From the NCBI GenBank assembly GCA_036526255.1, contig DATCYW010000017.1, positions 8,675-72,674 of the forward strand: 64,000 nt of DNA, in the 5' to 3' direction. Of this stretch, positions 29,648-41,818 are shown in pieces. Position 1 is the first letter of the stretch, and each line of letters begins with the position of its first letter. A program made the position numbers and the translations under genes. This DNA is from Malonomonas sp. Lineage in GTDB: Bacteria; Desulfobacterota; Desulfuromonadia; Desulfuromonadales; Geopsychrobacteraceae. Below the pieces are notes generated by a model. It was given only the letters and a program-made list of their open reading frames with translations. It was not told the origin of the DNA and did not search any database.

Positions 29648-31000
29648 TTAAGAGAAGAACCTTTCGACTTTCTGCAAGGCTTCCGGAAGGGCGAAGATCA
29701 GCACCCGGTCGCCACTTCGCAGCTGACTTTCACCGGTCGGAATTTCATAACTGCTGTTATGGACAATGGCCCCGATGATTGCGCCGCGTGGAAAGTGCAG
29801 CGCTCGCAGCGGGATGTTTAACAGGCCGCTGCTCTCTTTGATTTCAATCTCCAGGACCTCCGAATTGCTCCCATCTACGGCGGTCAGCGAGATGATGTCG
29901 CCACGACGGACGAATTTCAGGATCGCTCCGGCAGCGGCAAGGCGCGGTGAAACGCAGGCGTCGATCCCCAGATCAGAAGCCAACCCGAGCAGCTCCGGTT
30001 GGCTGACCAGCGCCAGAGTCCGGCGCACCCGATGTTGCCTTGCGAGCAGGCAGGTCAGGATGTTGGTCTCGTCATTCTGGGTGACCGCGATAAATACATC
30101 CGCGTCCGCCAGCCCTTCATCCAGCAGGGTAGAAACATCAAGTCCGTCGGTGTTTAGCACGACGGTCTTGTTCAGCTTTTCAGCCAGCTTGTGACAGCGA
30201 TCTTCATTCTTTTCAATCAGCTTGGTGTTGAAACGAAGATCCTCCAGGCTCTGCGCCACCTGCACGCCGATCCGGCTGCCGCCGAGCACGAAGGCCCGGT
30301 GGGTCGATTTGGCCTCAACTTTTTCCGACTGCAACAGGTAGTTGATGGCCGGCAGTTCGCGGTGATGGGCAAAAATATAGATACGGTCGCCGCTCTGGAT
30401 AATGTCATCACCGCGCGGAATAATGGTGTCACTGCCGCGGTTGATGGCGACGACGACGAATTTATACATGCCGCGCAGCTCGCCCAGCTCGGCCAGCGTC
30501 AGATCGCACAAGGGGCTGGAGGGGGTGATCCGGTAGCCCTGAAAGTGAATCTGACCTTCGGCAAATTCTGCAACATCGAAAGCCCTGGCGCTGCAGGCCA
30601 GTTTGGAGAGTTCCTCGGCCACCGCATCTTCGGGGTTGATCAGCAGATCGATGCCGAGCTTTTCCTTGGAGAGGATTGCCTTACTGTTTGAAAATTCGAT
30701 GCTCTTGGTGCGGGCGACGCGGGTTTTGACCTGATATTCGCGCGCCAGCAGGCAGGCAAGGATATTGACTTCATCCTTGTTGGTAACGGCGATAAAGATA
30801 TCGGTGGTTTTGATCCCCGCCTGTTCCAGCATTTCGGCACTGGCGCCGTTACCGGTGACGCCGAGAACGTTCAGTCGGTCCTGGGCCCGCTCGACCTTCT
30901 CCTCGTCCTGGTCAATCAGGGTCACTTCATGCCCTTCGCGGGACAGTCGGTCGCAAAGGAAGTAGCCAACCTGCCCGGCGCCGACGATAAGGATTTTCAT
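29648..31000 (-). CDS. trkA: Trk potassium uptake NAD-binding subunit
   Basis: Two RCK_N/RCK_C repeats: 'IVGAGQVG', 'VLGGSRIG', 'IIPRGDD'. Confidence 0.96.
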   Translation of the reverse strand: MKILIVGAGQVGYFLCDRLSREGHEVTLIDQDEEKVERAQDRLNVLGVTGNGASAEMLEQAGIKTTDIFIAVTNKDEVNILACLLAREYQVKTRVARTKSIEFSNSKAILSKEKLGIDLLINPEDAVAEELSKLACSARAFDVAEFAEGQIHFQGYRITPSSPLCDLTLAELGELRGMYKFVVVAINRGSDTIIPRGDDIIQSGDRIYIFAHHRELPAINYLLQSEKVEAKSTHRAFVLGGSRIGVQVAQSLEDLRFNTKLIEKNEDRCHKLAEKLNKTVVLNTDGLDVSTLLDEGLADADVFIAVTQNDETNILTCLLARQHRVRRTLALVSQPELLGLASDLGIDACVSPRLAAAGAILKFVRRGDIISLTAVDGSNSEVLEIEIKESSGLLNIPLRALHFPRGAIIGAIVHNSSYEIPTGESQLRSGDRVLIFALPEALQKVERFFS

Positions 31001-31117
31001 GGATGATCCCTTTTACAGAAGCTGTATTCACACGCGAAAAGACGCCCGCCAAGATCGCATAAAATGCACATTTGTGCAATAATGCCGACCTCAGTTAAGG
31101 GAGGTCGAGAGCGTATT

Positions 31118-31420
31118 ATGGATGATTTTTCTATCGATGTGGATGATGCAACCATCCGTCGGGAGCGCGAAAAAGCCCGCGAGTTGCGCAAGCAAGGCTG
31201 GTGGCAGAGCCGAGTTTCCAGAGGAGTTTGTCATTATTGCGAACAGCAGGTGCCGGCGAAAGAGCTGACTCTGGATCACATCTTGCCGCTGGCGCGTGGC
31301 GGCCGCAGCACCAAGGGGAATTGTGTCCCGGCCTGCAAAGAGTGCAACAACCAGAAAAAAAATCTGCTGCCGCTGGAGTGGGAGGAGCACTTGCAGAGGC
31401 TGAAAGACCGGTCGCAGTAA
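31118..31420 (+). CDS. Stand-alone HNH endonuclease (100 aa)
   Basis: 'CHYC...TLDHILPLARGG...NCVPACKECNNQK'; GGAGG upstream of ATG 31118. Confidence 0.9.
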   Translation: MDDFSIDVDDATIRREREKARELRKQGWWQSRVSRGVCHYCEQQVPAKELTLDHILPLARGGRSTKGNCVPACKECNNQKKNLLPLEWEEHLQRLKDRSQ

Positions 31421-31428
31421 CAATCAAT

Positions 31429-31471
31429 AAACAACAAAGCGGCTGCCTGACTGGCAGCCGCTTTGTTGTTT
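31429..31471. terminator. Bidirectional terminator, perfect 19-bp stem
   Basis: AAACAACAAAGCGGCTGCC-TGACT-GGCAGCCGCTTTGTTGTTT between convergent genes. Confidence 0.88.
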
Positions 31472-31476
31472 CAGTC

Positions 31477-34400
31477 TCAGGCCGCCGGCATCTGCCGGTA
31501 ATTGCGGGCCTTGGTATAGAGCTCCTGATACTGCTCTGCTGATTTTGTCCAGCTGAAATCCTGGGTCATCCCGCGTTTGACCAGCGTCAGCCAGCGGCTG
31601 CGTTGCGGGTAGATAGCCAGGGCGCGGTCGATGGCTTCCAGCAACTGCGCCGGCTCGGATTTCTCAAAGATAAAGCCATACCCCTGGCGCGGGTGCGCAT
31701 CGACATCCAGCACCGTGTCAGCCAGTCCGCCGGTGTTGCGGACCACCGGCAGGGCGCCGTAGGTCAGGGAGATCATCTGCGTCAGTCCGCAGGGCTCATA
31801 CAGGCTGGGCACCAGCAGCAGATCGCTGGCGGCATAGACCCGGTGTGAGAGGTTTTCGTCAAAGCCGAGGTTGATCGATACCTTGCCGGGATATTTACCT
31901 GCCTGGGCGCCCCAGAACGCCATCGCGTCCTGATTGCCGGAGCCGAGCAGGACGAACTGGACGTCGCGGGTCAGCAGGTCGCCCCAGATCTTTTCCACCA
32001 GGTCGATCCCCTTTTGCCGGTCGAGCCGGCTGACCAGGGCGATAATCGGCACATCATGGCGCTGCTCCAGCCCCAACTCCTTCTGCAGTAACCGCTTGCA
32101 GGCGCGCTTGCCGTTCAGGTTTTCCGCGTTAAAGGCGGTCGGCAGCGCCGTATCCAGCGCCGGGTCCCAGCTGCGGCGGTCCAGCCCGTTGATGATGCCG
32201 TGCAGATCCTCTTTGCGCTGCTGCAGTATCCCCTCAAAGCCGTGCCCCTGTTCGGCGCTCTGAATTTCCCGGCAGTAGGTCGGCGACACCGTGTTGATCA
32301 CGTCGGCATAGTTGATCCCGCCTTTGAGCGCGGAAATGTTGCCGAAATACTCCATTCCTTGTGCGGAGGCCAGTGAACTGTCCATCCCCAGCAGACGCAG
32401 CGTGTCCAGCGGGAAGGTGCCCTGATAGCCGAGATTGTGGATGGTCAGCAGGGTGGCGATTGACGAATAAAAGGGGTTGTGGCGCAGCTCTGTTCTCAGC
32501 AGCGCGGGGATAAAGCTGGTCTGCCAGTCGTGAATATGGATGACGTCCGGCCGGAAATCGAGCCGCTTGATCATCTCCAGAACCGCGCGACAGAAAAAGC
32601 CGAACCGCAGACTGTTGTCGGCGTAATCCCCTTCAGCAGTGCCGTAGAGTGGATCGCGGTCGAAAAATTCCGGACAATCGATAAACCAGTAGGGGACGCC
32701 ATCGTGCGAGGCCTGCTTGAGGCTGCCCCGATAGGCGGTGCCGTCAAGGGTCACTTCAACACTTTTGCGCCCTTTGCGCAGACTGACGCCGCTGCGTTCG
32801 GCGGAGCGGTGGCCAGGGAGGATGACCCTTACATCGTGGCCTAACTGGCGCAACGCGCGCGGCAACGATCCGGCAACATCGGCAAGTCCGCCGGTCTTGG
32901 CAAAGGGGGTCGCTTCGGGGGTGACAAAGAGAATCTTCATTGAGGTAGTGCCTCCTGAGACTGAAGGCAGGGCCGGTTTATCCGGTTCCGCACCTTCGAG
33001 GCACTGCAAAAAAATATCCACCTGATAGTCGGATTTTGCTGCATAGGCAACGACAGTCCGACGGTTAATTAATAATTCATCTATAATTTGTGATAACTCA
33101 TCAAGATCAGCGGAATTGTCTTTATAAGAATGAAAGATTAAAAATTGAAAAAAGATGCCAAGAGAGCTGTTCAGGGCCTGCTGGTCGAACCAGTCTACTT
33201 CATTATAATAATTACATTTGAGGAGTTTTCGCCAGTCTCTCCGGTTAAATAACCGGTCCAATGGCGGGTACAGTTTCTCAGGGGTCAGATTTTCGCTGTT
33301 GATTAATCGGTCATCCAACCCTTGCAGCGCGGCAAAGTCGCCCTCCAGTGCATCCGAAAAATGGCTTCTGAAGGAGATCTGCAGCAGCTGTTCAGGGTCG
33401 TAACCTTTCTGCTGTAATTGCTCCAACTCTGTCATCGCCCGCTTGACGCAATCACGGAAAGATTTCTGCGCTGCCGTCGGTTCTTCAAGTTCAAGCAGCT
33501 GTTGGCAGACGGCGGCGAAAGGCTCAAGTGGTAGCGCGGCATGGTCGGTCCAGAGGTTGCGACGTCCGCTGCTGCCATGGCGTTGCCAGAGCTGTTGCCA
33601 GCGGCCATCCTGATCCCGGACTGCGGTGAAGTCGGTGAAGACGTGGTGACAGTAAGGGGGCAGGCTAAAGGTGCCGCCTGCGCGCATGGCGGCGGTCGGT
33701 TGCAGGTGCTGAAGCCCTGAAGCCAGATCGGTCAAGAGGATAAAGTCGCTCCGCTGGTCAATATTGCAGGCTGCGGCAACGCCCTGTTGCTTTGCATCGG
33801 CGCGGGGAGCCGGTTCAGCGACCCGGCCGTTGATCTGCAGTGGTGAATTATTACAGAGGATCAGAACCTGTTGTTGCGCCAGGCGATTGCTGTAGGCAAA
33901 GACGTTCTCTTCGACGCCGTAGTCGGAAACAAAATCATAGAGCTGGAAATCCGTAGCACCGCTGAACAGGGCCCGCTTACGCAGCAGCGGGAAGGTCTCA
34001 CGCTGGTGTCTGTTCAACAAGTGCTGATCGGCCTGTTCCTGCCAGCGCGGCGTCAGGTACTCCATGCCGTACTTCTCGCTAAAGCCTTCGATCTGGCCGT
34101 GACCGAACATCGGCAGCCCCGGCATGGTCGCCAGCATGGTCGCTACGCAAAAATATTTGTCATCTTTACCGAATTGCTCGATCGCCGGTTTTTCATCCGG
34201 ATTGCTCATGAAATTGACAAAGCGCTGTAGGATCGCCGGATCGAAAGAAAGAATATTCTTGATGGTCTGCCGGTACTTGGCGTTCTCCTCGCGCTTCAGC
34301 ATGTTCATAAAGGCGCTGTTGTAGACGCGGTGCATGCCGAGGGTGCGGACGAAGTAGCCCTCCATCAGCCAAAAGGCCTCAGCGACCAGCAGGGTGTCGG

Positions 34401-36120
34401 GGGCTTCCTGACGGACCCGGTCGACCAGTTCACGCCAGAATTCAAGTGGGAAGAACCGATTGAATTCTTCCTGCGGCAAGGCATGGTCGGCGCGCGATGG
34501 TACCCCGGCGCCACCGCCTGGCAGTGGGAACCAGAGCCGCTGGAAGTGCTTTTTCGCCAGCGTCATGGCCGCGTCGAAGCGGATGACCCGGAAGCGTTTT
34601 GCCACCGACAGGATCAGCTGGATCATGGTTTCGCGCACCTGCGGCAGCAGGTAGTTCAGCTGGGCGGTGTCGTTCCACGGCAGGTGGGTGCCGTCGTTGC
34701 CGTGATAGAGGTAGCGCACTTCGCCGCTGTGATGATTCAGGTAACGACAGGTGACCGCCGCTTCGCTGTGGTCGTAGTAGCCGTCCTCGATCTGTACCGT
34801 AAAATCGCCGTCCTCACTCAGGTCCGGGCCGGTGTAACGGTAGCCGGGGTAGGGGGGATGACTCAGCTGGATGAACCAGTCGGGGTGTTCTTTGACCCAG
34901 GCTGAATCGATGCCGGTGTGATTGGTGACCACGTCGCAGGCCAGATCGATGCCGCGTTGCCGGCAGCGCCCACGCAGGTTTTCCAGCGCCGCGTCGCCGC
35001 CCAGATCCTCGGCAATCTTATAGTCGTGGATGGCATAGGCCGAGGCCGCCACCTGCAGCTGTCCGCAGAGCTGTTTGATTTTCTGCGAGGCTCTGGAGCG
35101 TTGCCAGATGCCGATCAGCCAGAGACTGTTGAAGCCGTTACCGGCAATTTCATTCAGCTCCGCGTCGGGGATCTGGTCGAGGCGATAGATGTGCTGACCG
35201 TACTTGTCCGACAGCTGATGCAGCCAGACGTAAATGGTTTTGGCCAGCAGGACGGTGCGTGGCATCCAGTCGAGATCGGCGGTGAAGTTCGCAAACTCGG
35301 CATTCAGATAGTTGGCCGGATCGAGCGTGGTGGTCGCAACTTCGCCTGGATGGCCCGGGCGATGTCCTTCCTGTTCATAATGGCTGATTGAGTCGGAGAT
35401 CTGCGCCAGCAGCTCGGCAGGCAGTATGCCGCTCCAGGTCTTTTGCAGCAACAGCAGCTGCTCGCGCAGCGATTTGCTGCTTTGCAACGGCTTCAGCAAG
35501 CGCTCCAGCAAGGAATCAGGCAGATGGCCATAGCCATCATCAACTTCTGGCAGCGCCAGATCGATCTGCTGCAGCGCCAGATGATACTGGGTGGTCTGTT
35601 GCAGTTGCAGCTCTTCACGCTGAAAGAGCGGCGCGGCTGACTGCAGCGCCGGGTTCTGGCTCTGAACGCGCAGCAGAAACAGTTCGAGCAGCAGTTCATC
35701 CAGTTTGCCCAGCTGTTCAAGTTGCCGCAGCAGTTGACCGATGTCGCTCTGCCCCAGGCTGATCGGAACCGTGGGGAACAGTTTGAGGAATGCCGAAAAA
35801 AGAGTTTCCAGTTGTGGCAGTTCCAGCGAACTGTCGGTCAGCATCACGCGGTTGCGGAACGTTTTACAGTTGCGGCTGGCCAGATAGTGTCGGCCAATCT
35901 GCAGCAGCACCCGGTTCAGGGTTGCCCAGAGATCCAGTTCGCCGGCGGTCGGCGCCGCTGCCGATTGTTCGCGCAGGTGATCAGCGATCAGATGCAAGAA
36001 ATAGGTGCGCCCGGGCGGCGGCGATTGACGGAACTGCTCGGTCAGTTGCAATTGCTGCCAGAGGTTCTGGCCGCATTGGACGCCGAGCGGGTAGTGTGCT
36101 TGTCTTAAAAAATCATTCAT
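31477..36120 (-). CDS. glgA: Fusion of a GH13 alpha-amylase-family domain (aa 1-1060) and glycogen synthase GlgA (aa 1061-1547)
   Basis: GH13 'DVVTNHTG', 'RFDAAM', 'VAEAFW', 'NPDE'; GT5 'KTGGL', 'HDWQT', 'TIHNLGYQG', 'PSLYEPCGL'; no stop between them; internal AGGAGG and ATG at 32940. Confidence 0.88.
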   Translation of the reverse strand: MNDFLRQAHYPLGVQCGQNLWQQLQLTEQFRQSPPPGRTYFLHLIADHLREQSAAAPTAGELDLWATLNRVLLQIGRHYLASRNCKTFRNRVMLTDSSLELPQLETLFSAFLKLFPTVPISLGQSDIGQLLRQLEQLGKLDELLLELFLLRVQSQNPALQSAAPLFQREELQLQQTTQYHLALQQIDLALPEVDDGYGHLPDSLLERLLKPLQSSKSLREQLLLLQKTWSGILPAELLAQISDSISHYEQEGHRPGHPGEVATTTLDPANYLNAEFANFTADLDWMPRTVLLAKTIYVWLHQLSDKYGQHIYRLDQIPDAELNEIAGNGFNSLWLIGIWQRSRASQKIKQLCGQLQVAASAYAIHDYKIAEDLGGDAALENLRGRCRQRGIDLACDVVTNHTGIDSAWVKEHPDWFIQLSHPPYPGYRYTGPDLSEDGDFTVQIEDGYYDHSEAAVTCRYLNHHSGEVRYLYHGNDGTHLPWNDTAQLNYLLPQVRETMIQLILSVAKRFRVIRFDAAMTLAKKHFQRLWFPLPGGGAGVPSRADHALPQEEFNRFFPLEFWRELVDRVRQEAPDTLLVAEAFWLMEGYFVRTLGMHRVYNSAFMNMLKREENAKYRQTIKNILSFDPAILQRFVNFMSNPDEKPAIEQFGKDDKYFCVATMLATMPGLPMFGHGQIEGFSEKYGMEYLTPRWQEQADQHLLNRHQRETFPLLRKRALFSGATDFQLYDFVSDYGVEENVFAYSNRLAQQQVLILCNNSPLQINGRVAEPAPRADAKQQGVAAACNIDQRSDFILLTDLASGLQHLQPTAAMRAGGTFSLPPYCHHVFTDFTAVRDQDGRWQQLWQRHGSSGRRNLWTDHAALPLEPFAAVCQQLLELEEPTAAQKSFRDCVKRAMTELEQLQQKGYDPEQLLQISFRSHFSDALEGDFAALQGLDDRLINSENLTPEKLYPPLDRLFNRRDWRKLLKCNYYNEVDWFDQQALNSSLGIFFQFLIFHSYKDNSADLDELSQIIDELLINRRTVVAYAAKSDYQVDIFLQCLEGAEPDKPALPSVSGGTTSMKILFVTPEATPFAKTGGLADVAGSLPRALRQLGHDVRVILPGHRSAERSGVSLRKGRKSVEVTLDGTAYRGSLKQASHDGVPYWFIDCPEFFDRDPLYGTAEGDYADNSLRFGFFCRAVLEMIKRLDFRPDVIHIHDWQTSFIPALLRTELRHNPFYSSIATLLTIHNLGYQGTFPLDTLRLLGMDSSLASAQGMEYFGNISALKGGINYADVINTVSPTYCREIQSAEQGHGFEGILQQRKEDLHGIINGLDRRSWDPALDTALPTAFNAENLNGKRACKRLLQKELGLEQRHDVPIIALVSRLDRQKGIDLVEKIWGDLLTRDVQFVLLGSGNQDAMAFWGAQAGKYPGKVSINLGFDENLSHRVYAASDLLLVPSLYEPCGLTQMISLTYGALPVVRNTGGLADTVLDVDAHPRQGYGFIFEKSEPAQLLEAIDRALAIYPQRSRWLTLVKRGMTQDFSWTKSAEQYQELYTKARNYRQMPAA

Positions 36121-36124
36121 AGGT

Positions 36125-37165
36125 TCAGTAAGTCACCGTTGGGTCTGAATTACGCAGAAATTCTGCCGCTTCTTCAGGGGGAGTCGGATTGATCTGGAAG
36201 CCGGAGCCCCATTCGAAACCGGCCACGCGGGTCAGTTTCGGAGCGATTTCAATGTGCCAATGGTAATCGGCCGGCAAGGATGCCCAGTAGTCGGGGCGTC
36301 CCCAGCGCAGGTGCATCGGCGGCGCGCTGTGGAGGATAAAGGAGTAGGGCGGATCGCGCAGCACCGTACGCAGTCGCCGCAGGGTGTCACGCAGGGTATC
36401 GGCCAGCAGCAACAGTTGCTGATCGGTCTGCAGGGTGTAATCGTGGCTGTGGTCAAGTGGCGCAATCATCAGTTCAAATGGCACGCTTGACGCGAAAGGA
36501 GCGTAAACGAGAAAATTTCCGTCGTCACGCACGACCCGGTCTTTGCTGTTGCGCTCCTGACTGAGCAGGTCACAGATCAGACAGCGCTGCTTGCGCTCGA
36601 AGTGTTCGCGGCAGGCCGCCAGTTCGTTGGCAACCAGCGGCGGAATCAGTGGCACTGCGATCAGTTGCGAGTGTGAATGGGGGACGTTGGCCGCGGCCTC
36701 GACGCCGTAATTTTTAAACACAAACAGGTAACGGAAACGACTGTCATTACGCAGATCGAGCATCCGGGTGCGGAAGGCTTTCAGCACCTCGGCGATTTCC
36801 TCGGCTGTCAGATCGGCCATGCTGCGTTCGTGGTCGGGATGCTCAATAATCACCTCGTGGGCACCGATCCCGTTCATCCGGTCGTAAAGCCCCTCGGCCT
36901 GATTGTTCAGTTCCCCTTCAATCCGCAGTGCCGGGAACTTGTTCGGGATCACCCTGACCTGCCAGCCGGGTTGATTCGCTTTGCTGGTGTTCGGACGGTA
37001 GGCGTAGATCTCCGGTGGGGTTTTTGCTTCATTGCCGTTGCAGAACGGGCAGGAGGCCATTTCGACCTGGCTGCGCTGTTGGATAAAATCCTGCGGCCGC
37101 CGGCTGCGCCCCTGGGTGATGATGGTCCAGTTGTTCTTCAATGGATCCCAGCGTAATTCTGACAC
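36125..37165 (-). CDS. galT: GalT-family hexose-1-phosphate nucleotidylyltransferase
   Basis: 'ELRWDP', 'CPFC', 'PNKFPAL', 'GAHEVIIE', HxHxQ 'HSHSQ', 'GFEWGSG'; GTG start. Confidence 0.92.
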   Translation of the reverse strand: MSELRWDPLKNNWTIITQGRSRRPQDFIQQRSQVEMASCPFCNGNEAKTPPEIYAYRPNTSKANQPGWQVRVIPNKFPALRIEGELNNQAEGLYDRMNGIGAHEVIIEHPDHERSMADLTAEEIAEVLKAFRTRMLDLRNDSRFRYLFVFKNYGVEAAANVPHSHSQLIAVPLIPPLVANELAACREHFERKQRCLICDLLSQERNSKDRVVRDDGNFLVYAPFASSVPFELMIAPLDHSHDYTLQTDQQLLLLADTLRDTLRRLRTVLRDPPYSFILHSAPPMHLRWGRPDYWASLPADYHWHIEIAPKLTRVAGFEWGSGFQINPTPPEEAAEFLRNSDPTVTY

Positions 37166-37187
37166 GTCACTATCCTTTCTCTGTCGA

Positions 37188-39329
37188 TCAGACTGACCAG
37201 TTGTCTTCGTCTAGGGCGCAGCCACGGTAGGTAAAGGTGGCGCTCCCCTCGGTCGGCCAGCGACCGTTCTCTTTGTCGTTCTGCAGGGCGTGACAGCTAA
37301 GCCCGAGTTTTTCACCCGGGGCGATCAGCAGCGCCGCCAGCGGCACCGCCAGTTCCAGAATCTGATCACAGGCAGCGCGGCCGGTGCCGATCTTTACCCC
37401 CGCCTGATGCAGGTTGAGGGTCTGGGTCGCAAAGCAAAAGCGCAGTTGAAATAGCTGCTGCCCCGAAAGCCGTAGTTCAAAGCTGCCCTGTTCGCCACAC
37501 AGGTGTTTCAGCAGCTCAGCTTGATCCAGTCGGAAGTACAGCTGCTCTCGGTCGTAACCGTAGAACATCTGCTCCAGGCTTTCGCGGTTGGCGTGCATCG
37601 CACCACCGGCGGCCAGATTGATCCGGCCGGCAGCCAGCCATTCGAAATAATCACCGACCCGACCGTCGATCTGCGGCGTAAAGCAGGCGCTTGGCTCTAA
37701 ACTTTCGACGCTGGCTGCCGCGGGTTTGATCGATTGATGCAGCCGGGCCGGCGCGGGCAGCCCTTTCAGGTGGTAGAGGGCTTCAAGGTGCAGCCGGAAC
37801 AGGCGGTCGAAAATATCTGCCTGGGCGGTGACGTGTTCGTCGCCGAACCACCAGAACCAGTCACTCCCTTCGGCGCGCAACAGTTCGCGCACCAGTTCGC
37901 TTAAGGGCTCTGCCGGATTGTTTAGCGCCAGATCGATTTCGTTGCCGATAATTTCATCCCGGGTCTGTTGCAGCAGCTCCCAGGCGCGGTTCTCTTCCGG
38001 GTGGCCGATCCAGGTGGTGAAATCGGAACGGATCCAGGACCCCGCGGCCAGTCGCGTCAGCGGCAGCGGCGTGCTTGCAGCGATGGCATCCTGCACGGTG
38101 GCGAGTTCAAGTTGCGGATCTTTTTGCAGGTTCTGGTAGAGGTCGCGCAAAAACGGGTAGCCGTTTTCGGGATAGCGCTCCCAGCAGTTCTCGCCATCAA
38201 GGATGATCGCGACCGTGCCGCCGGGGGCCTGCGCGGCGATTGTCTGCAGTCGGGTGAGAACGTCGTCGGCCGCTTCGGCCGAATTCCAGCCGGCGTAGAG
38301 AAAGCCGATCCGGTCGGAGAGTTCGCGATCCCGGAACAGCAGCGGCAGCCCGTCATATTGATAGATATTGTAGAGCTTTCTGCGATCTTTAAGCCCTGTG
38401 TCCAGGCTGCGGGCCAGAATGTCCTCGTCGGTGGCCGCCCAGAGCGCGCCCTCTTCGCGCAACAGCCCGGCCGCCGCTTCGCTGACCGCACCTTCTGCCG
38501 GCCACATGCCGCGCGGACGCTGGCCGAGTATCCGGTTGGCGGTCTGCAATCCTTCACGAACCTGCAGGCGCCCGTCATGCGGATGTCTGAAATCGGCCGC
38601 CGGTAATGGCAAGCCCGGGCTTGGCAGCTGCGCCGCGCGCAGGTCGCAGAGCAGCGGCAGAATCGGATGGGCGTACGGGGTCACCGAAATTTCAATCTGT
38701 CCGGCCTGCTCGAGCTGTTTGTGTCGCGCGATGACGCGGGAGACTTCGGCATGGCAGATTTCAAGCAACTGCTGTTTCTGTGCTTCAGTGAAGTTCTCGC
38801 CCTGTTTCAGCAGCGCCGCCAGCACCGGCGTATTCTTGCGCAGATGATAGCCGGTCCAGGCGAGCAGAAACAGCACCTGCAGGTCGCGCAGGTCCTGTGG
38901 TTTGAATTTGTCCAGCTGTGGTGACGAGTCGCCGCCGCGCATCCGGAAGAGCTGATGGTAGCGGCGGTTCGGCAGGATCTGCGTCTCTTCGTTGACGGAG
39001 AAAAACTGCTCGATGATAAACTGCTGCTCGGCGGTTGCCAGCTGTTCAGGCGGCTGGGTCGCCAGGTCCAGCCAGCGGTCACGGTCGCTGCCGTCAGCGT
39101 AACGCTCCAGCTGTTCGAGCAGGGTCGGCACCAGGTTGACCGTTACCCGCGCGCCGGTTTCGGCGATGGTCTCCAGCATCTCGCCGTAGTCCTTCAACCC
39201 GTGCAGCCAGGTCCAGGGGAGCAGCGTCTGACCGCTGACCGGATCCCGATAGTCGGGCTGATGCATGTGCCAGAGGATGCAGACCTTCAGTGGTGCGTTC
39301 AGGCCGGATTTTGTAGCAGTTGCAACCAT
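37188..39329 (-). CDS. GH57 glycoside hydrolase (amylopullulanase/glucanotransferase/branching-type)
   Basis: 'WHMHQP', 'PYAHPILP', nucleophile 'WPAEG', acid/base 'LDGENCWE', 'AEGSDWFWW'. Confidence 0.92.
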   Translation of the reverse strand: MVATATKSGLNAPLKVCILWHMHQPDYRDPVSGQTLLPWTWLHGLKDYGEMLETIAETGARVTVNLVPTLLEQLERYADGSDRDRWLDLATQPPEQLATAEQQFIIEQFFSVNEETQILPNRRYHQLFRMRGGDSSPQLDKFKPQDLRDLQVLFLLAWTGYHLRKNTPVLAALLKQGENFTEAQKQQLLEICHAEVSRVIARHKQLEQAGQIEISVTPYAHPILPLLCDLRAAQLPSPGLPLPAADFRHPHDGRLQVREGLQTANRILGQRPRGMWPAEGAVSEAAAGLLREEGALWAATDEDILARSLDTGLKDRRKLYNIYQYDGLPLLFRDRELSDRIGFLYAGWNSAEAADDVLTRLQTIAAQAPGGTVAIILDGENCWERYPENGYPFLRDLYQNLQKDPQLELATVQDAIAASTPLPLTRLAAGSWIRSDFTTWIGHPEENRAWELLQQTRDEIIGNEIDLALNNPAEPLSELVRELLRAEGSDWFWWFGDEHVTAQADIFDRLFRLHLEALYHLKGLPAPARLHQSIKPAAASVESLEPSACFTPQIDGRVGDYFEWLAAGRINLAAGGAMHANRESLEQMFYGYDREQLYFRLDQAELLKHLCGEQGSFELRLSGQQLFQLRFCFATQTLNLHQAGVKIGTGRAACDQILELAVPLAALLIAPGEKLGLSCHALQNDKENGRWPTEGSATFTYRGCALDEDNWSV

Positions 39330-41818
39330 TGCTCTACCTTTTCGCGATATTCATTCAGCAGCGAATCGGCGCGCTCCGCTTCGACGGCTTCAGCCAGAAT
39401 GTGCACCAGCGGCCGATACGGATCGGGAACCACCAGCACCCAGTCATCACCCAGGTGCACCTTGACGCCGTCGATGAAGGTGGTCTGCAGGTCTGCGCTC
39501 GCCTCGTTCATCAGGCGCATGATGCCGCCTTTGCACTCCCAGCTGCAGGAGAGCTGGATCTTTCGATAGGGGCGCTGCGGGATCTGCGACCGCAGGTCGG
39601 TCATGGTCTCGTCCGCGCGGGCCAGCAGTTCCAGGGTTTTCGCCACCGCGAACAGGGCGTCGAAGTGCGGTTGAAATGCGGTGTAGGCAATCCGGCCCTC
39701 CAGGTCGCCGACCAGATGATTCTCTTTGTCTGTCGCGGCAACGCCCAGCGAGCGACCATCCCCTTTGGTGCGGACGACATTGATGCGCTTGCTGCGGACA
39801 ATCTCTTCCAGGGTGTGGGGCGCCGCGATCGGTACGGCAATCGAACCGCCCTGCGTGGTTTTGGCGATCAGCGTCGCAGAGAGAGTCAAGACTTCGATAT
39901 CGCTAAAAATTTTACCGCTGCCGTCGACGAAAATAGAGCGTTCACCAGAAGGTCCAAGCCAGAAGCCCGCAGTCGCATTCAGGGCGGTGACGATCTTGCC
40001 CATCCGTTTCAGGGCGTCCGTCTGTTCTTCGGCCAGCGGCGGGATGTGGTTTTCATCAATCTGTGCGTTCAGTTCGATAACCTCGCAACCGAGACGGTTG
40101 AGCAGACGCGGCAGCAGGTCGGCGGCGGGGGAGTGGTTGAGGTCGATCACCACCCGCGGCTTGGCTTTGCTCAGCACCTCGCGATCGAGGGCGCGGAGGA
40201 AGCCATCCTGATAGTATTCGTAGAGATTCGGTAGTTCGGAGATCGAGCCCGGCTCACTGTAGTGAACGCGGCGGAAGTTTTCTTTGTAGTAGATCCGCTC
40301 GATCGCTTTGGCCGCGGCTGATGAGAGTTCCAGCCCCTGCTCATCAAAAAAGACGATTTCTGTCACCGATGAATCACGTGCCGACTGCCGAAAATGCACC
40401 CCGCCGATTTCTCCGAAAGTGGTCAGTTTGTAACGCAGCACCGGCAAAGGGACGCGCTTGACATCGCGGGCGTTGATTCCTGCCGATAGCAGGCCGCCGA
40501 CGAAGGCGCGTTTCAGCATGCGCGAGGAGCGCAGCGCATCGCGACCGATGAGGATAAAGCTGTCCTTCGGCAGTGTCGAGCCGTAGGCCGCGCCGAGTTT
40601 TGCGGCAAATTCAGGAGTCAGTTCGATGTTGGTCAGTCCCTTGACCACTGCCCCTTCGAACAGGCTGCGGCGCCAGGTTTCTCCCCAGATCATGTTGCTG
40701 GTGACGATGGCGCTGTTTTCGATGATTTTGCTCGGCCATATTTTGACGTCGGCGTTGATCGTCGCATCAGCACCGACATTTGAACCATCGCCGACCACCA
40801 CACCCGCCTTGATGGTGGCGCCGGTGCCGATTCGCACGTTCTGACCGAGGACCGCATCAGTGATCTTGGCGTTGGCCTTGACGTATACGTTGTCCCAGAG
40901 GACGGTATTTTCGAGTTGGGCACCCTCTTCGATAACGCAGTTGCGGCCGATGATGCAGTTTTTCAGCTTTGGTGCGCCGATCAGGCGGGTGTTGTCACCC
41001 AGGATGACCGTGCCTTCGAGCATCGCCAGGCTGTCCGGGTTGGCGGTCGCTTCAGCGCCCAGGTACAGCCCTTTCTGCCCGCTCAGCGGCCGCTCTTCGA
41101 TATTGACGCTGGCCTTGCCGCTGAGGATGTCCTTGCTGGTTTCGAGGTAGGCGTCGGTGTTGCCGATATCCTGCCAGTAGCCTTTCAAGGTACAGCCGTA
41201 GAGCGGGGCCTTGCGCTCCAGCATCAGGGGAAAAACATCCTTTGACCAGTCGCGGTTTTCCCCCTCGGGGATCAGGTCCAGCACTTCCGGTTCGAGAATG
41301 TAGATGCCGGTGTTGATGGTGTCGGAGAAAACTTCACCCCAATCCGGTTTTTCCAGAAACTTGGTGATCTCACCTTCGGGATTGGTGATGACTACCCCGA
41401 ACTGCAGCGGGTCGGGCACCGGCGTTAGAGTCAGGGTCGCCTGGGCCTGCTTCTCTTTATGGAAGGCGATCGCCGCGCCCAGGTCGAAATCGGTCAGCAG
41501 ATCGCCGCTGATGATCATGAAGCGCTCATCCAGATGACGCGCCGCCGCCTTGACCGCGCCCGCGGTACCCAGGTCTTCGAGGGGGGTGACGTAGGTGATC
41601 TCAACGCCGTATTCGCTGCCGTCGCCGAAGAATTTCTTGATTGTTTCCGGCTGAAAATAGAGCAGGATCACCAGCTCGGTGATGCCGTGCTTTTTCAGCA
41701 GATCGACAATGTGCAGCATGATCGGGCGATTGCAGAGGGAAACCATCGGCTTGGGTACGTTGATCGAGAGCGGATGCAGGCGGGTGCCGAAGCCTCCGGC
41801 CATGATGACTGCTTTCAT
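39299..41818 (-). CDS. Sugar-1-phosphate nucleotidyltransferase + LbH + degenerate phosphomutase fusion (MPG/PMM type)
   Basis: 'MAGGFGTRL', 'KPMV', 'GTAG', 'FLEKP', 'WQDIG'; hexapeptide repeats; PMM fold lacking SHN and DxDxD motifs. Confidence 0.88.
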   Translation of the reverse strand: MKAVIMAGGFGTRLHPLSINVPKPMVSLCNRPIMLHIVDLLKKHGITELVILLYFQPETIKKFFGDGSEYGVEITYVTPLEDLGTAGAVKAAARHLDERFMIISGDLLTDFDLGAAIAFHKEKQAQATLTLTPVPDPLQFGVVITNPEGEITKFLEKPDWGEVFSDTINTGIYILEPEVLDLIPEGENRDWSKDVFPLMLERKAPLYGCTLKGYWQDIGNTDAYLETSKDILSGKASVNIEERPLSGQKGLYLGAEATANPDSLAMLEGTVILGDNTRLIGAPKLKNCIIGRNCVIEEGAQLENTVLWDNVYVKANAKITDAVLGQNVRIGTGATIKAGVVVGDGSNVGADATINADVKIWPSKIIENSAIVTSNMIWGETWRRSLFEGAVVKGLTNIELTPEFAAKLGAAYGSTLPKDSFILIGRDALRSSRMLKRAFVGGLLSAGINARDVKRVPLPVLRYKLTTFGEIGGVHFRQSARDSSVTEIVFFDEQGLELSSAAAKAIERIYYKENFRRVHYSEPGSISELPNLYEYYQDGFLRALDREVLSKAKPRVVIDLNHSPAADLLPRLLNRLGCEVIELNAQIDENHIPPLAEEQTDALKRMGKIVTALNATAGFWLGPSGERSIFVDGSGKIFSDIEVLTLSATLIAKTTQGGSIAVPIAAPHTLEEIVRSKRINVVRTKGDGRSLGVAATDKENHLVGDLEGRIAYTAFQPHFDALFAVAKTLELLARADETMTDLRSQIPQRPYRKIQLSCSWECKGGIMRLMNEASADLQTTFIDGVKVHLGDDWVLVVPDPYRPLVHILAEAVEAERADSLLNEYREKVEQWLQLLQNPA

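Follow-up and report, generated by a model that had tools for sequence, protein, structure and literature searches.

A GH13-glycogen synthase fusion gene of Malonomonas sp. with a probably retained internal start for free GlgA

The fused gene and its domains

We analyzed a stretch of 64,000 nucleotides from the sediment bacterium Malonomonas sp. (GenBank assembly GCA_036526255.1, contig DATCYW010000017.1, positions 8,675 to 72,674; the whole stretch is called the window below), in which a GH13-family enzyme and the glycogen synthase GlgA are joined in one open reading frame (ORF). The ORF lies at 31477..36120 on the minus strand, starts with ATG and, according to the ORF listing, is translated into 1547 aa without an internal stop. 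The predicted masses are 175.5 kDa for the whole fusion and 54.4 kDa for the GlgA portion alone. An earlier note, made from the letters of the sequence, had described this in-frame ORF together with several GH13 and GlgA motifs, all of which were found by translation, Pfam and TIGR02095. The ORF and its parts are the following:

31477..36120, minus strand: whole fused ORF, GH13-family enzyme plus GlgA, 1547 aa, 175.5 kDa; architecture common to more than 80 homologues
35371..36120, minus strand: N-terminal all-helical domain, aa 1-250; AlphaFold2 (AF2) model with a predicted local distance difference test (pLDDT) of ~90
33961..35253, minus strand: GH13 (beta/alpha)8 catalytic domain, aa ~290-720; from Pfam, alignment, AF2 and Foldseek
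33616..33948, minus strand: beta-sandwich domain C of the GH13 module, aa 725-835; from AF2 secondary structure
32986..33603, minus strand: C-terminal helical domain of the GH13 protein, aa 840-1045; confident in AF2, and stand-alone relatives have it too
32941..32985, minus strand: linker at the junction, aa 1046-1060, PDKPALPSVSGGTTS; modelled with low confidence or disordered
31480..32940, minus strand: complete ADP-glucose-type glycogen synthase GlgA (GT5), aa 1061-1547; from Pfam, TIGR02095 and superposition

Pfam places Alpha-amylase (PF00128) at aa 326-683, Glyco_transf_5 at aa 1062-1300 and Glycos_transf_1 at aa 1354-1510; the GH13 portion (aa 1-1045) is followed by a linker of 15 residues and a complete GlgA (aa 1061-1547). 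An AlphaFold model covering aa 1-1059 reached a pLDDT of 78 and has a disordered stretch (aa 252-283) between the GH13 barrel and the helical domain of aa 1-250, for which no Pfam match was obtained. A second model of aa 840-1547 (pLDDT 89.5, predicted template modelling score (pTM) 0.86) suggests that the helical domain of aa 840-1045 packs against GlgA.

The GlgA half is matched by TIGR02095 (glgA) from aa 1061 to aa 1537, which are model positions 1-476 of 477, with 565.5 bits against a cutoff of 328.45. As this match begins at model position 1, Met1061 takes the exact position of the normal GlgA initiator. The motifs KTGGL (1075-1079) and EPCGL (1442-1446) are present, and the GlgA part of the second model can be superposed on the glycogen synthase of E. 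coli (2qzs) with a template modelling (TM) score of 0.92 and a root-mean-square deviation of 2.3 Å at 39% identity, both having the GT-B fold. Sequence model, fold and motifs all point to the ADP-glucose-type glycogen synthase family, and the predicted activity of the GlgA half is ADP-glucose-dependent alpha-1,4 elongation.

In the GH13 half the conserved motifs are region I DVVTNHTG (396-403), RFDAA (514-518), AEAF (580-583) and NPDE (640-643), and the catalytic residues are the nucleophile D516 (RFDAA), the acid/base E581 (AEAF) and D642 (NPDE). Among 42 fused and unfused homologues D396, N400, H401, R514, D516, E581 and D642 are invariant. The histidine of region IV (N-H-D) is replaced by proline (N-P-D-E) across the whole family, which is atypical, but this position is not catalytic. 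With the invariant GH13 triad and the TM score of the GlgA model both halves of the fusion look functional, and the invariant catalytic residues together with the GlgA match of 565 bits (TM 0.92) suggest that both are under selection.

Reality and origin of the fusion

The earlier note had named reads across the junction and the same architecture in other genomes as checks, and both turned out in favour of a real fusion. Logan contigs from four independent DNA metagenome runs (three studies) span positions 32700-33500 without any indel and with two scattered substitutions, so that the junction is not an assembly error. A search with aa 1-1059 identified 86 fused homologues, more than 80 of them from Desulfuromonadales, which are 1498-1645 aa long, share the Pfam architecture of the ORF and have identities from 82% down to 44-47%. 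They include proteins from Malonomonas rubra, Desulfuromusa, Geopsychrobacter electrodiphilus and Trichloromonas, some of them encoded on contigs of 4-5 Mb including complete genomes, and in public records they are labelled 'glycogen synthase GlgA'. Within the clade of the window the length and the sequence of the linker are conserved. The fusion is therefore almost certainly genuine and ancient, and an assembly or sequencing error or a fresh stop loss, the latter raised by the earlier note as its alternative, is practically negligible, even if more distant relatives do have two genes and one metagenome-assembled genome (MAG), L006, shows a frameshift in its GH13 part.

In the nearest unfused relatives, MAGs of Geobacteraceae/Desulfuromonadales, the GH13 gene is located directly upstream of glgA, and the two are separated by a stop codon and a spacer of 9-68 nt. 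In the loci L008-L010, L082, L084, L086 and L091 this spacer has 27-68 nt. The same two genes stand in the same order as in the window, the GH13 core is 49-54% identical and most loci also have trkA and the gene for a nucleoside triphosphate (NTP) transferase/phosphoglucomutase (PGM). Those with a galT gene (L009, L010, L086, L091) show the order galT-GH13-glgA, which means that the fusion joined two neighbours; the galT directly followed by glgA that the earlier note had taken as established is not what these loci have. The conserved gene order is NTP-transferase/PGM, GH57, GalT-like, GH13(-)GlgA and trkA. As the unfused genes are only 9-68 nt apart in the same operon, the linker PDKPALPSVSGGTTS is the translated former spacer between GH13 and glgA.

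In a neighbour-joining tree (without support values) the P0081, Geopsychrobacter, window and Desulfuromusa groups form one large fused clade, and a Trichloromonas-type fused clade is located separately from it among unfused sequences. We conclude that in the conserved alpha-glucan operon of Desulfuromonadales (nucleoside diphosphate (NDP)-sugar pyrophosphorylase/PGM - GH57 - GalT-like - GH13 - glgA) an orphan GH13-family gene of ~1150 aa lost its stop codon. The short spacer was then read in frame, giving the linker of ~15 residues in which the former ribosome-binding site (RBS) GGAGG now encodes Gly-Gly.

The internal initiation region

Close to the junction and upstream of it, four features were found inside the reading frame:

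32938..32940, minus strand: internal in-frame ATG (Met1061), ancestral GlgA initiator codon; from TIGR02095 and orthologue alignment
32951..32956, minus strand: internal Shine-Dalgarno (SD) sequence AGGAGG (codons S1055-G1056-G1057), 10 nt before the ATG; from orthologue alignment and anti-SD energy
33061..33240, minus strand: AT-rich trough lying 120-300 nt before the internal ATG; GC ~0.3, GC content at third codon positions (GC3) 0.35 vs 0.75 in the rest of the gene
33136..33258, minus strand: synonymous-constraint element, codons 955-995; strongest silent-site conservation in the gene

The AGGAGG that the earlier note had seen 10 nt before the ATG at 32940 was located at 32956..32951. It ties for the strongest anti-SD duplex of the gene (-10.3 kcal/mol) and is its only canonical one. 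GGAGG occurs three times in the 4.6-kb gene and a single motif is unremarkable by itself, yet its position before the residue aligned to GlgA model position 1, taken together with the silent-site invariance described below, is far beyond chance. The site also lies within the published limits for internal translation initiation sites, as used for ArcB-C (free energy (dG) <= -8.5, start <15 nt away).

For the comparison at the DNA level we used 13 full-length orthologues from the clade of the window (median 68% aa identity), 1 partial sequence, 2 sequences from the Geopsychrobacter clade and 4 from other fused clades. The DNA of the close orthologues was gathered one by one, as the matches listed in the metagenome scan were mostly stand-alone family members. 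The internal ATG is present in 16/16 sequences of the window and Geopsychrobacter clades. It is preceded by GGAGG in 13 of the 14 window-clade sequences, the remaining one (L003) having GGAGAA, and by GGTGGAGGG and GGGCGAGGA in L169 and L170 from the Geopsychrobacter clade. Codon 1056 is GGA, the rarest glycine codon (13%), in 13/13 orthologues, and only 2/65 invariant glycine columns and 7/185 four-fold columns are fixed for one codon in the same way. Since these control columns share the same phylogeny, the fixation of GGA is evidence of selection at the nucleotide level. Codon 1057 is GGC in all 12 orthologues with glycine at this position, and the G->E exchange in L003 still keeps GGAG.

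The start of the full-length protein looks different. Its ATG at 36120 follows the galT stop codon (TGA, 36127-36125) by 4 nt and has no good SD; among the orthologues this distance is 2-10 nt, and translation of the full-length protein is probably coupled to galT. Compared to 0 to -6 kcal/mol before the full-length start, the internal SD reaches -7.1 to -11.6 kcal/mol and is the stronger of the two in 15/15 orthologues. In 13/15 orthologues the region of the internal start has less structure than the gene median, and the consensus fold of the leader from -330 to +3 amounts to only -3.8 kcal/mol. As an internal control, the NTP-transferase/PGM fusion encoded in the same operon has no SD before its domain-boundary Met376. 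An invariant CCUC (~33008-33011), ~56 nt upstream, can form 4 bp with GAGG of the SD (32952-32955), a pairing kept in 12-16/16 sequences that may weakly sequester the internal SD.

At the protein level Met1061 is kept in 18/19 members of the window group and in 8/8 of the Geopsychrobacter group, and in the only exception of the window group, P0022, both the Met and the Gly-Gly are lost. Met1061 is found in 14/51 proteins of the Desulfuromusa group and in 0/3 of the P0081 group, two groups in which L, K, R or E stands in its place, and in 0/7 of clade B. In the Desulfuromusa-type and Trichloromonas-type fused clades the SD is absent and the Met is replaced in most members. The retained internal start suggested by the earlier note thus receives strong comparative support in two clades, from the silent-site conservation of ATG and GGAGG, the trough, the constraint element and the weak full-length SD, but it is not a general property of the fusion: Met1061 appears to be a start retained only in the window and Geopsychrobacter clades. 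In a further MAG sequence, the 71%-identical L006 mentioned above, the frame shift lies in the GH13 part at ~9062 and glgA with its SD and ATG is intact; either the assembly is wrong here, or the locus is natural and could make the internal product alone.

The AT-rich trough and the constraint element

The trough at -120 to -300 nt has a GC content of 0.18-0.40 in 16/16 sequences keeping SD and ATG, and it is absent from the fused clades without them as well as from the GH13 genes of the unfused relatives. The GC3 within the trough is 0.39 vs 0.65 elsewhere in the gene for the clades with SD and ATG, and 0.69 vs 0.70 for those without SD. Synonymous entropy reaches its gene-wide minimum at codons 955-968 (0.29 vs a mean of 0.66, permutation P = 0.009), and for codons 956-995 the 20-column minimum was reached in 0/5000 permutations. 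The constraint element holds the palindrome CCGGTTATTTAACCGG (33257-33242), the 20-nt invariant block TGGCGAAAACTCCTCAAATG (33234-33215) and TATAAT (33207-33202), the latter being the only one in the gene and kept in position in 11/13 orthologues. The palindrome is perfect (7+2+7, CCGGTTA-TT-TAACCGG, 33242-33257) and lies in codons R956-L957-F958-N959, whose rare codons (TTA) are nearly invariant in the 13 orthologues; an operator and a small hairpin are both conceivable roles for it.

The element could represent a processing site, an internal promoter with operator, or a standby or rare-codon region whose lack of structure leaves the internal RBS accessible. A sigma-54 promoter of the -24/-12 type was considered for TGGCGAAAACTCCTC and rejected, as by eye this sequence does not fit the consensus. 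An overlapping ORF as cause of the silent-site constraint was rejected as well, since there is no conserved alternative-frame or antisense ORF. The Rfam scan of 31000-37400 (E <= 1) gave two chance-level matches only, and in the alignment of 16 leader sequences RNAalifold detected practically no conserved structure except for a 4-bp hairpin of the palindrome and the 4-bp CCUC/GAGG pairing. Neither the palindrome nor the 20-nt conserved block recurs meaningfully elsewhere in the window. In an unbiased search with the whole gene, 7/8 metatranscriptome contigs within the gene fell on the glgA third, a bias that weakly fits an extra 3' RNA. Contigs from searches aimed at the glgA/junction region were left out of this count, since such searches favour that region.

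Two products from one gene

Ribosomes starting at ATG 36120 must make the 175-kDa GH13-GlgA protein. Our favoured reading, to which we assign a probability of about 0.62, is that the gene has two products, namely this fusion and a free GlgA of 54 kDa. In the lineage of the window selection at the DNA level would have preserved the old glgA initiation region, which consists of a strong SD with its ATG, an AT-rich leader of little structure and the constrained element bearing TATAAT, and from this it follows that ribosomes probably also start within the ORF; use of the internal start itself is, on the comparison of sequences, a likely event. Free GlgA would perhaps be translated from an internal transcript, and we regard the existence of an internal promoter as doubtful. 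The GH13 module would act on the alpha-1,4-glucan elongated by GlgA by trimming, disproportionating or branching it and would be held beside the synthase by the C-terminal helical domain, and the ratio of free to tethered synthase would set how tightly elongation and remodelling are coupled.

Several points weigh against this reading. The absence of SD and Met in large fused clades means that free GlgA from the internal site is dispensable there. A spacing of 10 nt between SD and ATG is among the longest that still work, and ribosomes elongating through the ORF would compete with internal initiation. The 13 orthologues are related, even if the control columns share their tree. Regarding transcription, no promoter on the minus strand was detected by a sigma-70 consensus scan, either in the gene as a whole or in the trough, and in a hexamer scan the best sites had 8-9 of 12 matches, with a poor -35 upstream of TATAAT. 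The RNA consists of sparse assembled contigs of low depth without strand or 5'-end information, and both the short product and the internal transcript start are predicted from comparison. Docking of GlgA by the helical domain is suggested by a single value, the pTM, and the activity of the GH13 half cannot be derived from its nearest structures (amylases, neopullulanases, GlgE, TreS), which are 12-15% identical.

The best surviving alternative is that the 175-kDa fusion is the sole product and that GGAGG, ATG and the AT-rich codons pause ribosomes while the GH13 part folds, or that Gly-Gly serves as a hinge. It fits that many fused clades keep the fusion without SD and Met, that AT-rich codons are rare in these genes of ~55-60% GC and that the 54-kDa product is a prediction. 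Nevertheless, we consider it rather improbable: a hinge would not fix the rare GGA (compare the 2/65 one-codon glycine columns), and a pause would leave unexplained why the ATG is kept in 26/27 proteins with the SD and freely becomes L, K, R or E without it, why the motif stands at initiation distance from the ancestral GlgA start and why the SD at the full-length start is weaker.

Less likely still is an upstream constraint (codons 955-995 and the AT trough) that is unrelated to internal translation and reflects an operator (CCGGTTATTTAACCGG), an antisense promoter or a site at which RNase cleavage frees a stable glgA 3' fragment. The palindrome and the long invariant blocks would suit it, as would the preference of the metatranscriptome contigs for the 3' third of the gene, and AU-rich single-stranded RNA is a typical endonuclease target. 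The trough, however, co-occurs phylogenetically with SD and ATG, and an Rfam match, a conserved fold or a conserved alternative-frame or antisense ORF were all missing in the searches described above. A processing site would still need the internal SD and ATG for a product and in this respect overlaps with the two-product reading.

An extended form of the two-product reading is a nested two-output gene, in which the balance between free and tethered GlgA would depend on a regulated internal promoter together with the inherited RBS, and the helical domain would dock the synthase. The ~1150-aa GH13 family would then be a missing partner of glycogen synthesis (e.g. non-GlgB branching, chain-trimming or primer-generating) that in most bacteria is a separate protein in a complex with GlgA. 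We mention this combination as a speculation that is unlikely to hold in all its parts.

The GH13 family

The match of the GH13 part to PF00128 (47 bits vs a cutoff of 22) is supported by Foldseek, which gave E 5e-12 to many GH13 structures with a target TM score (TMt) of up to 0.70, and by the alignment of regions I, III and IV to 3dhu and 4gkl. Sequence matches in the PDB were local only, the best having E 3e-6. The structural neighbours are amylases, neopullulanases, GlgE, TreS and NPDE, hydrolases and transferases alike, and as they are generic GH13 enzymes at 12-15% identity the specificity is not assignable from the searches. No NCBIfam equivalog matched the GH13 part. A GlgB branching enzyme (GH13_8/9) was ruled out, since neither Pfam nor NCBIfam gave a GlgB or CBM48 match and GlgB structures were outside the top 50 fold matches.

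To judge from an exhaustive search at E <= 1e-30 the family comprises 874 clusters (50% identity), nearly all of them stand-alone proteins. The stand-alone relatives, annotated as 'alpha-amylase family', have ~1100-1250 aa and appear below the fused proteins in the match list. Members were found in Desulfuromonadales, Bacteroidota, Ignavibacteriota, Chlorobiota, Chloroflexota and one Promethearchaeota MAG. The last one (L025) is a stand-alone member with 46% identity on an Asgard MAG contig, and a 71%-identical copy (L004) on a contig binned as Chloroflexota is probably due to mis-binning.

Further fusions were found within the family. P0121 is clearly an independent fusion, as GlgA is joined at another junction (from aa 888) and the helical domain is missing. 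In P0159 (1680 aa) the same GH13 family is fused behind the GH77 4-alpha-glucanotransferase MalQ, and P0187 (1769 aa) had no Pfam match at all. The independent fusions to GlgA and MalQ appear to tie the family to glucan enzymes.

Neighbouring genes

The genes and the hairpin next to the fused gene are listed here:

36125..41818, minus strand: upstream operon genes; synteny kept in fused and unfused relatives
39299-41818, minus strand: NTP-transferase/phosphoglucomutase fusion, first gene of the operon, 839 aa
37188-39329, minus strand: GH57, 713 aa
36125-37165, minus strand: GalT-like; from PDB sequence search
31429..31471, minus strand: terminator-like hairpin with a 19-bp stem, directly 3' of the stop codon, between the convergent glgA and a small HNH gene

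In the 839-aa protein a sugar-1-phosphate nucleotidyltransferase (NTP_transferase and hexapeptide repeats) is joined to a phosphoglucomutase/phosphomannomutase, and the 3' end of its gene overlaps the GH57 start by 31 nt. The closest match of the GalT-like protein is At5g18200 from Arabidopsis (PDB 1z84, E 4e-64), and classical GalT is far more distant (E 1e-17). As At5g18200 is an ADP-glucose phosphorylase, the GalT-like gene may serve to interconvert ADP-glucose and glucose-1-phosphate rather than galactose metabolism. The GH57 protein is nearest to the recently solved GH57 amylopullulanases 8zyi/9jlq (PMC12106739) with E 2e-85; it is weakly similar to the Thermus-type GH57 branching enzyme, and ~200 residues at its C-terminus have no match. 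The operon contains no canonical glgB or glgC and the 64-kb window no second glgA or GH13 paralogue, so the GH13 module might conceivably act in branching or in connection with primers, as pure inference.

The hairpin at 31429-31471 is probably a bidirectional terminator and could also stabilise the 3' end of glgA. The small convergent gene on the plus strand (31064-31420) encodes an HNH-nuclease domain protein of ~100-118 aa with an HNH region like that of Cas9d/IscB, and a 97-101 aa HNH gene is present at the same position in ten relatives (L161-L170).

Significance and comparison with known systems

The locus is a clean natural example of what can happen to the RBS of a downstream cistron after gene fusion: in two lineages selection has maintained it, now translated as Gly-Gly, and sister lineages let it decay and can be used as natural 'mutants'. 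Should both products be made, the chain length or the branching of glycogen could be tuned by the proportion of free and tethered synthase, with a possible use in enzymatic glucan design. Should the fusion be the only product, the locus encodes an ordinary multidomain enzyme, although an undescribed one. The comparative signal is exceptionally clean and open to direct testing, but the consequences are local to glycogen metabolism. Moreover, a large uncharacterised GH13 family is linked directly to glycogen synthase through repeated independent fusions (GlgA, MalQ), and this gives a clear biochemical hypothesis for an enzyme without a close solved structure or an assigned activity.

Compared to the stand-alone GlgA of E. 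coli (2qzs), with which it shares KTGGL, EPCGL and the full-length TIGR02095 match, the GlgA of the window has 1060 extra N-terminal residues if translated from the first ATG. A GT5 synthase and a GH13 glycogen enzyme from neighbouring genes are also joined in one chain in the GlgA-GlgB fusion of Criblamydiaceae and Waddliaceae (Chlamydiae), whose GlgB domain is described as inactive in a decaying pathway (review PMC11046441). There, GlgA is N-terminal and its partner is a canonical branching enzyme, whereas in the window the GH13 part is N-terminal, lacks a GlgB signature, belongs to an uncharacterised family of ~1150 aa with its triad kept and is followed by a retained initiation site at the junction. 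With the reversed domain order and the non-GlgB GH13 a fusion of the chlamydial type was ruled out. TreS-Mak and GlgB-MalQ are other fusions of alpha-glucan enzymes (PMC11046441) that, like P0159 and P0121, combine consecutive or cooperating glucan enzymes in one chain, but their partners or junctions differ. The GH13-GlgA architecture is not among the fusions in this 2024 review, and our literature searches found no description of the architecture or of the operon.

Internal initiation in frame at a domain boundary has been described for ArcB/ArcB-C and the IF2 isoforms of E. coli (Meydan et al. 2019, 10.1101/520783). As in ArcB-C, an SD-like sequence and an in-frame start are located at the edge of the C-terminal domain, and local synonymous conservation serves as evidence. 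The ArcB-C product was shown by western blot (10.1101/520783), whereas the short product of the window is predicted from the DNA. Unlike the ArcB-C site, the site in the window is the inherited RBS of a once-separate cistron, and initiation there would yield a canonical enzyme in complete form. The gene is an undescribed but database-visible variant of two known themes, glucan enzymes joined by fusion and internal initiation in frame where two domains meet.

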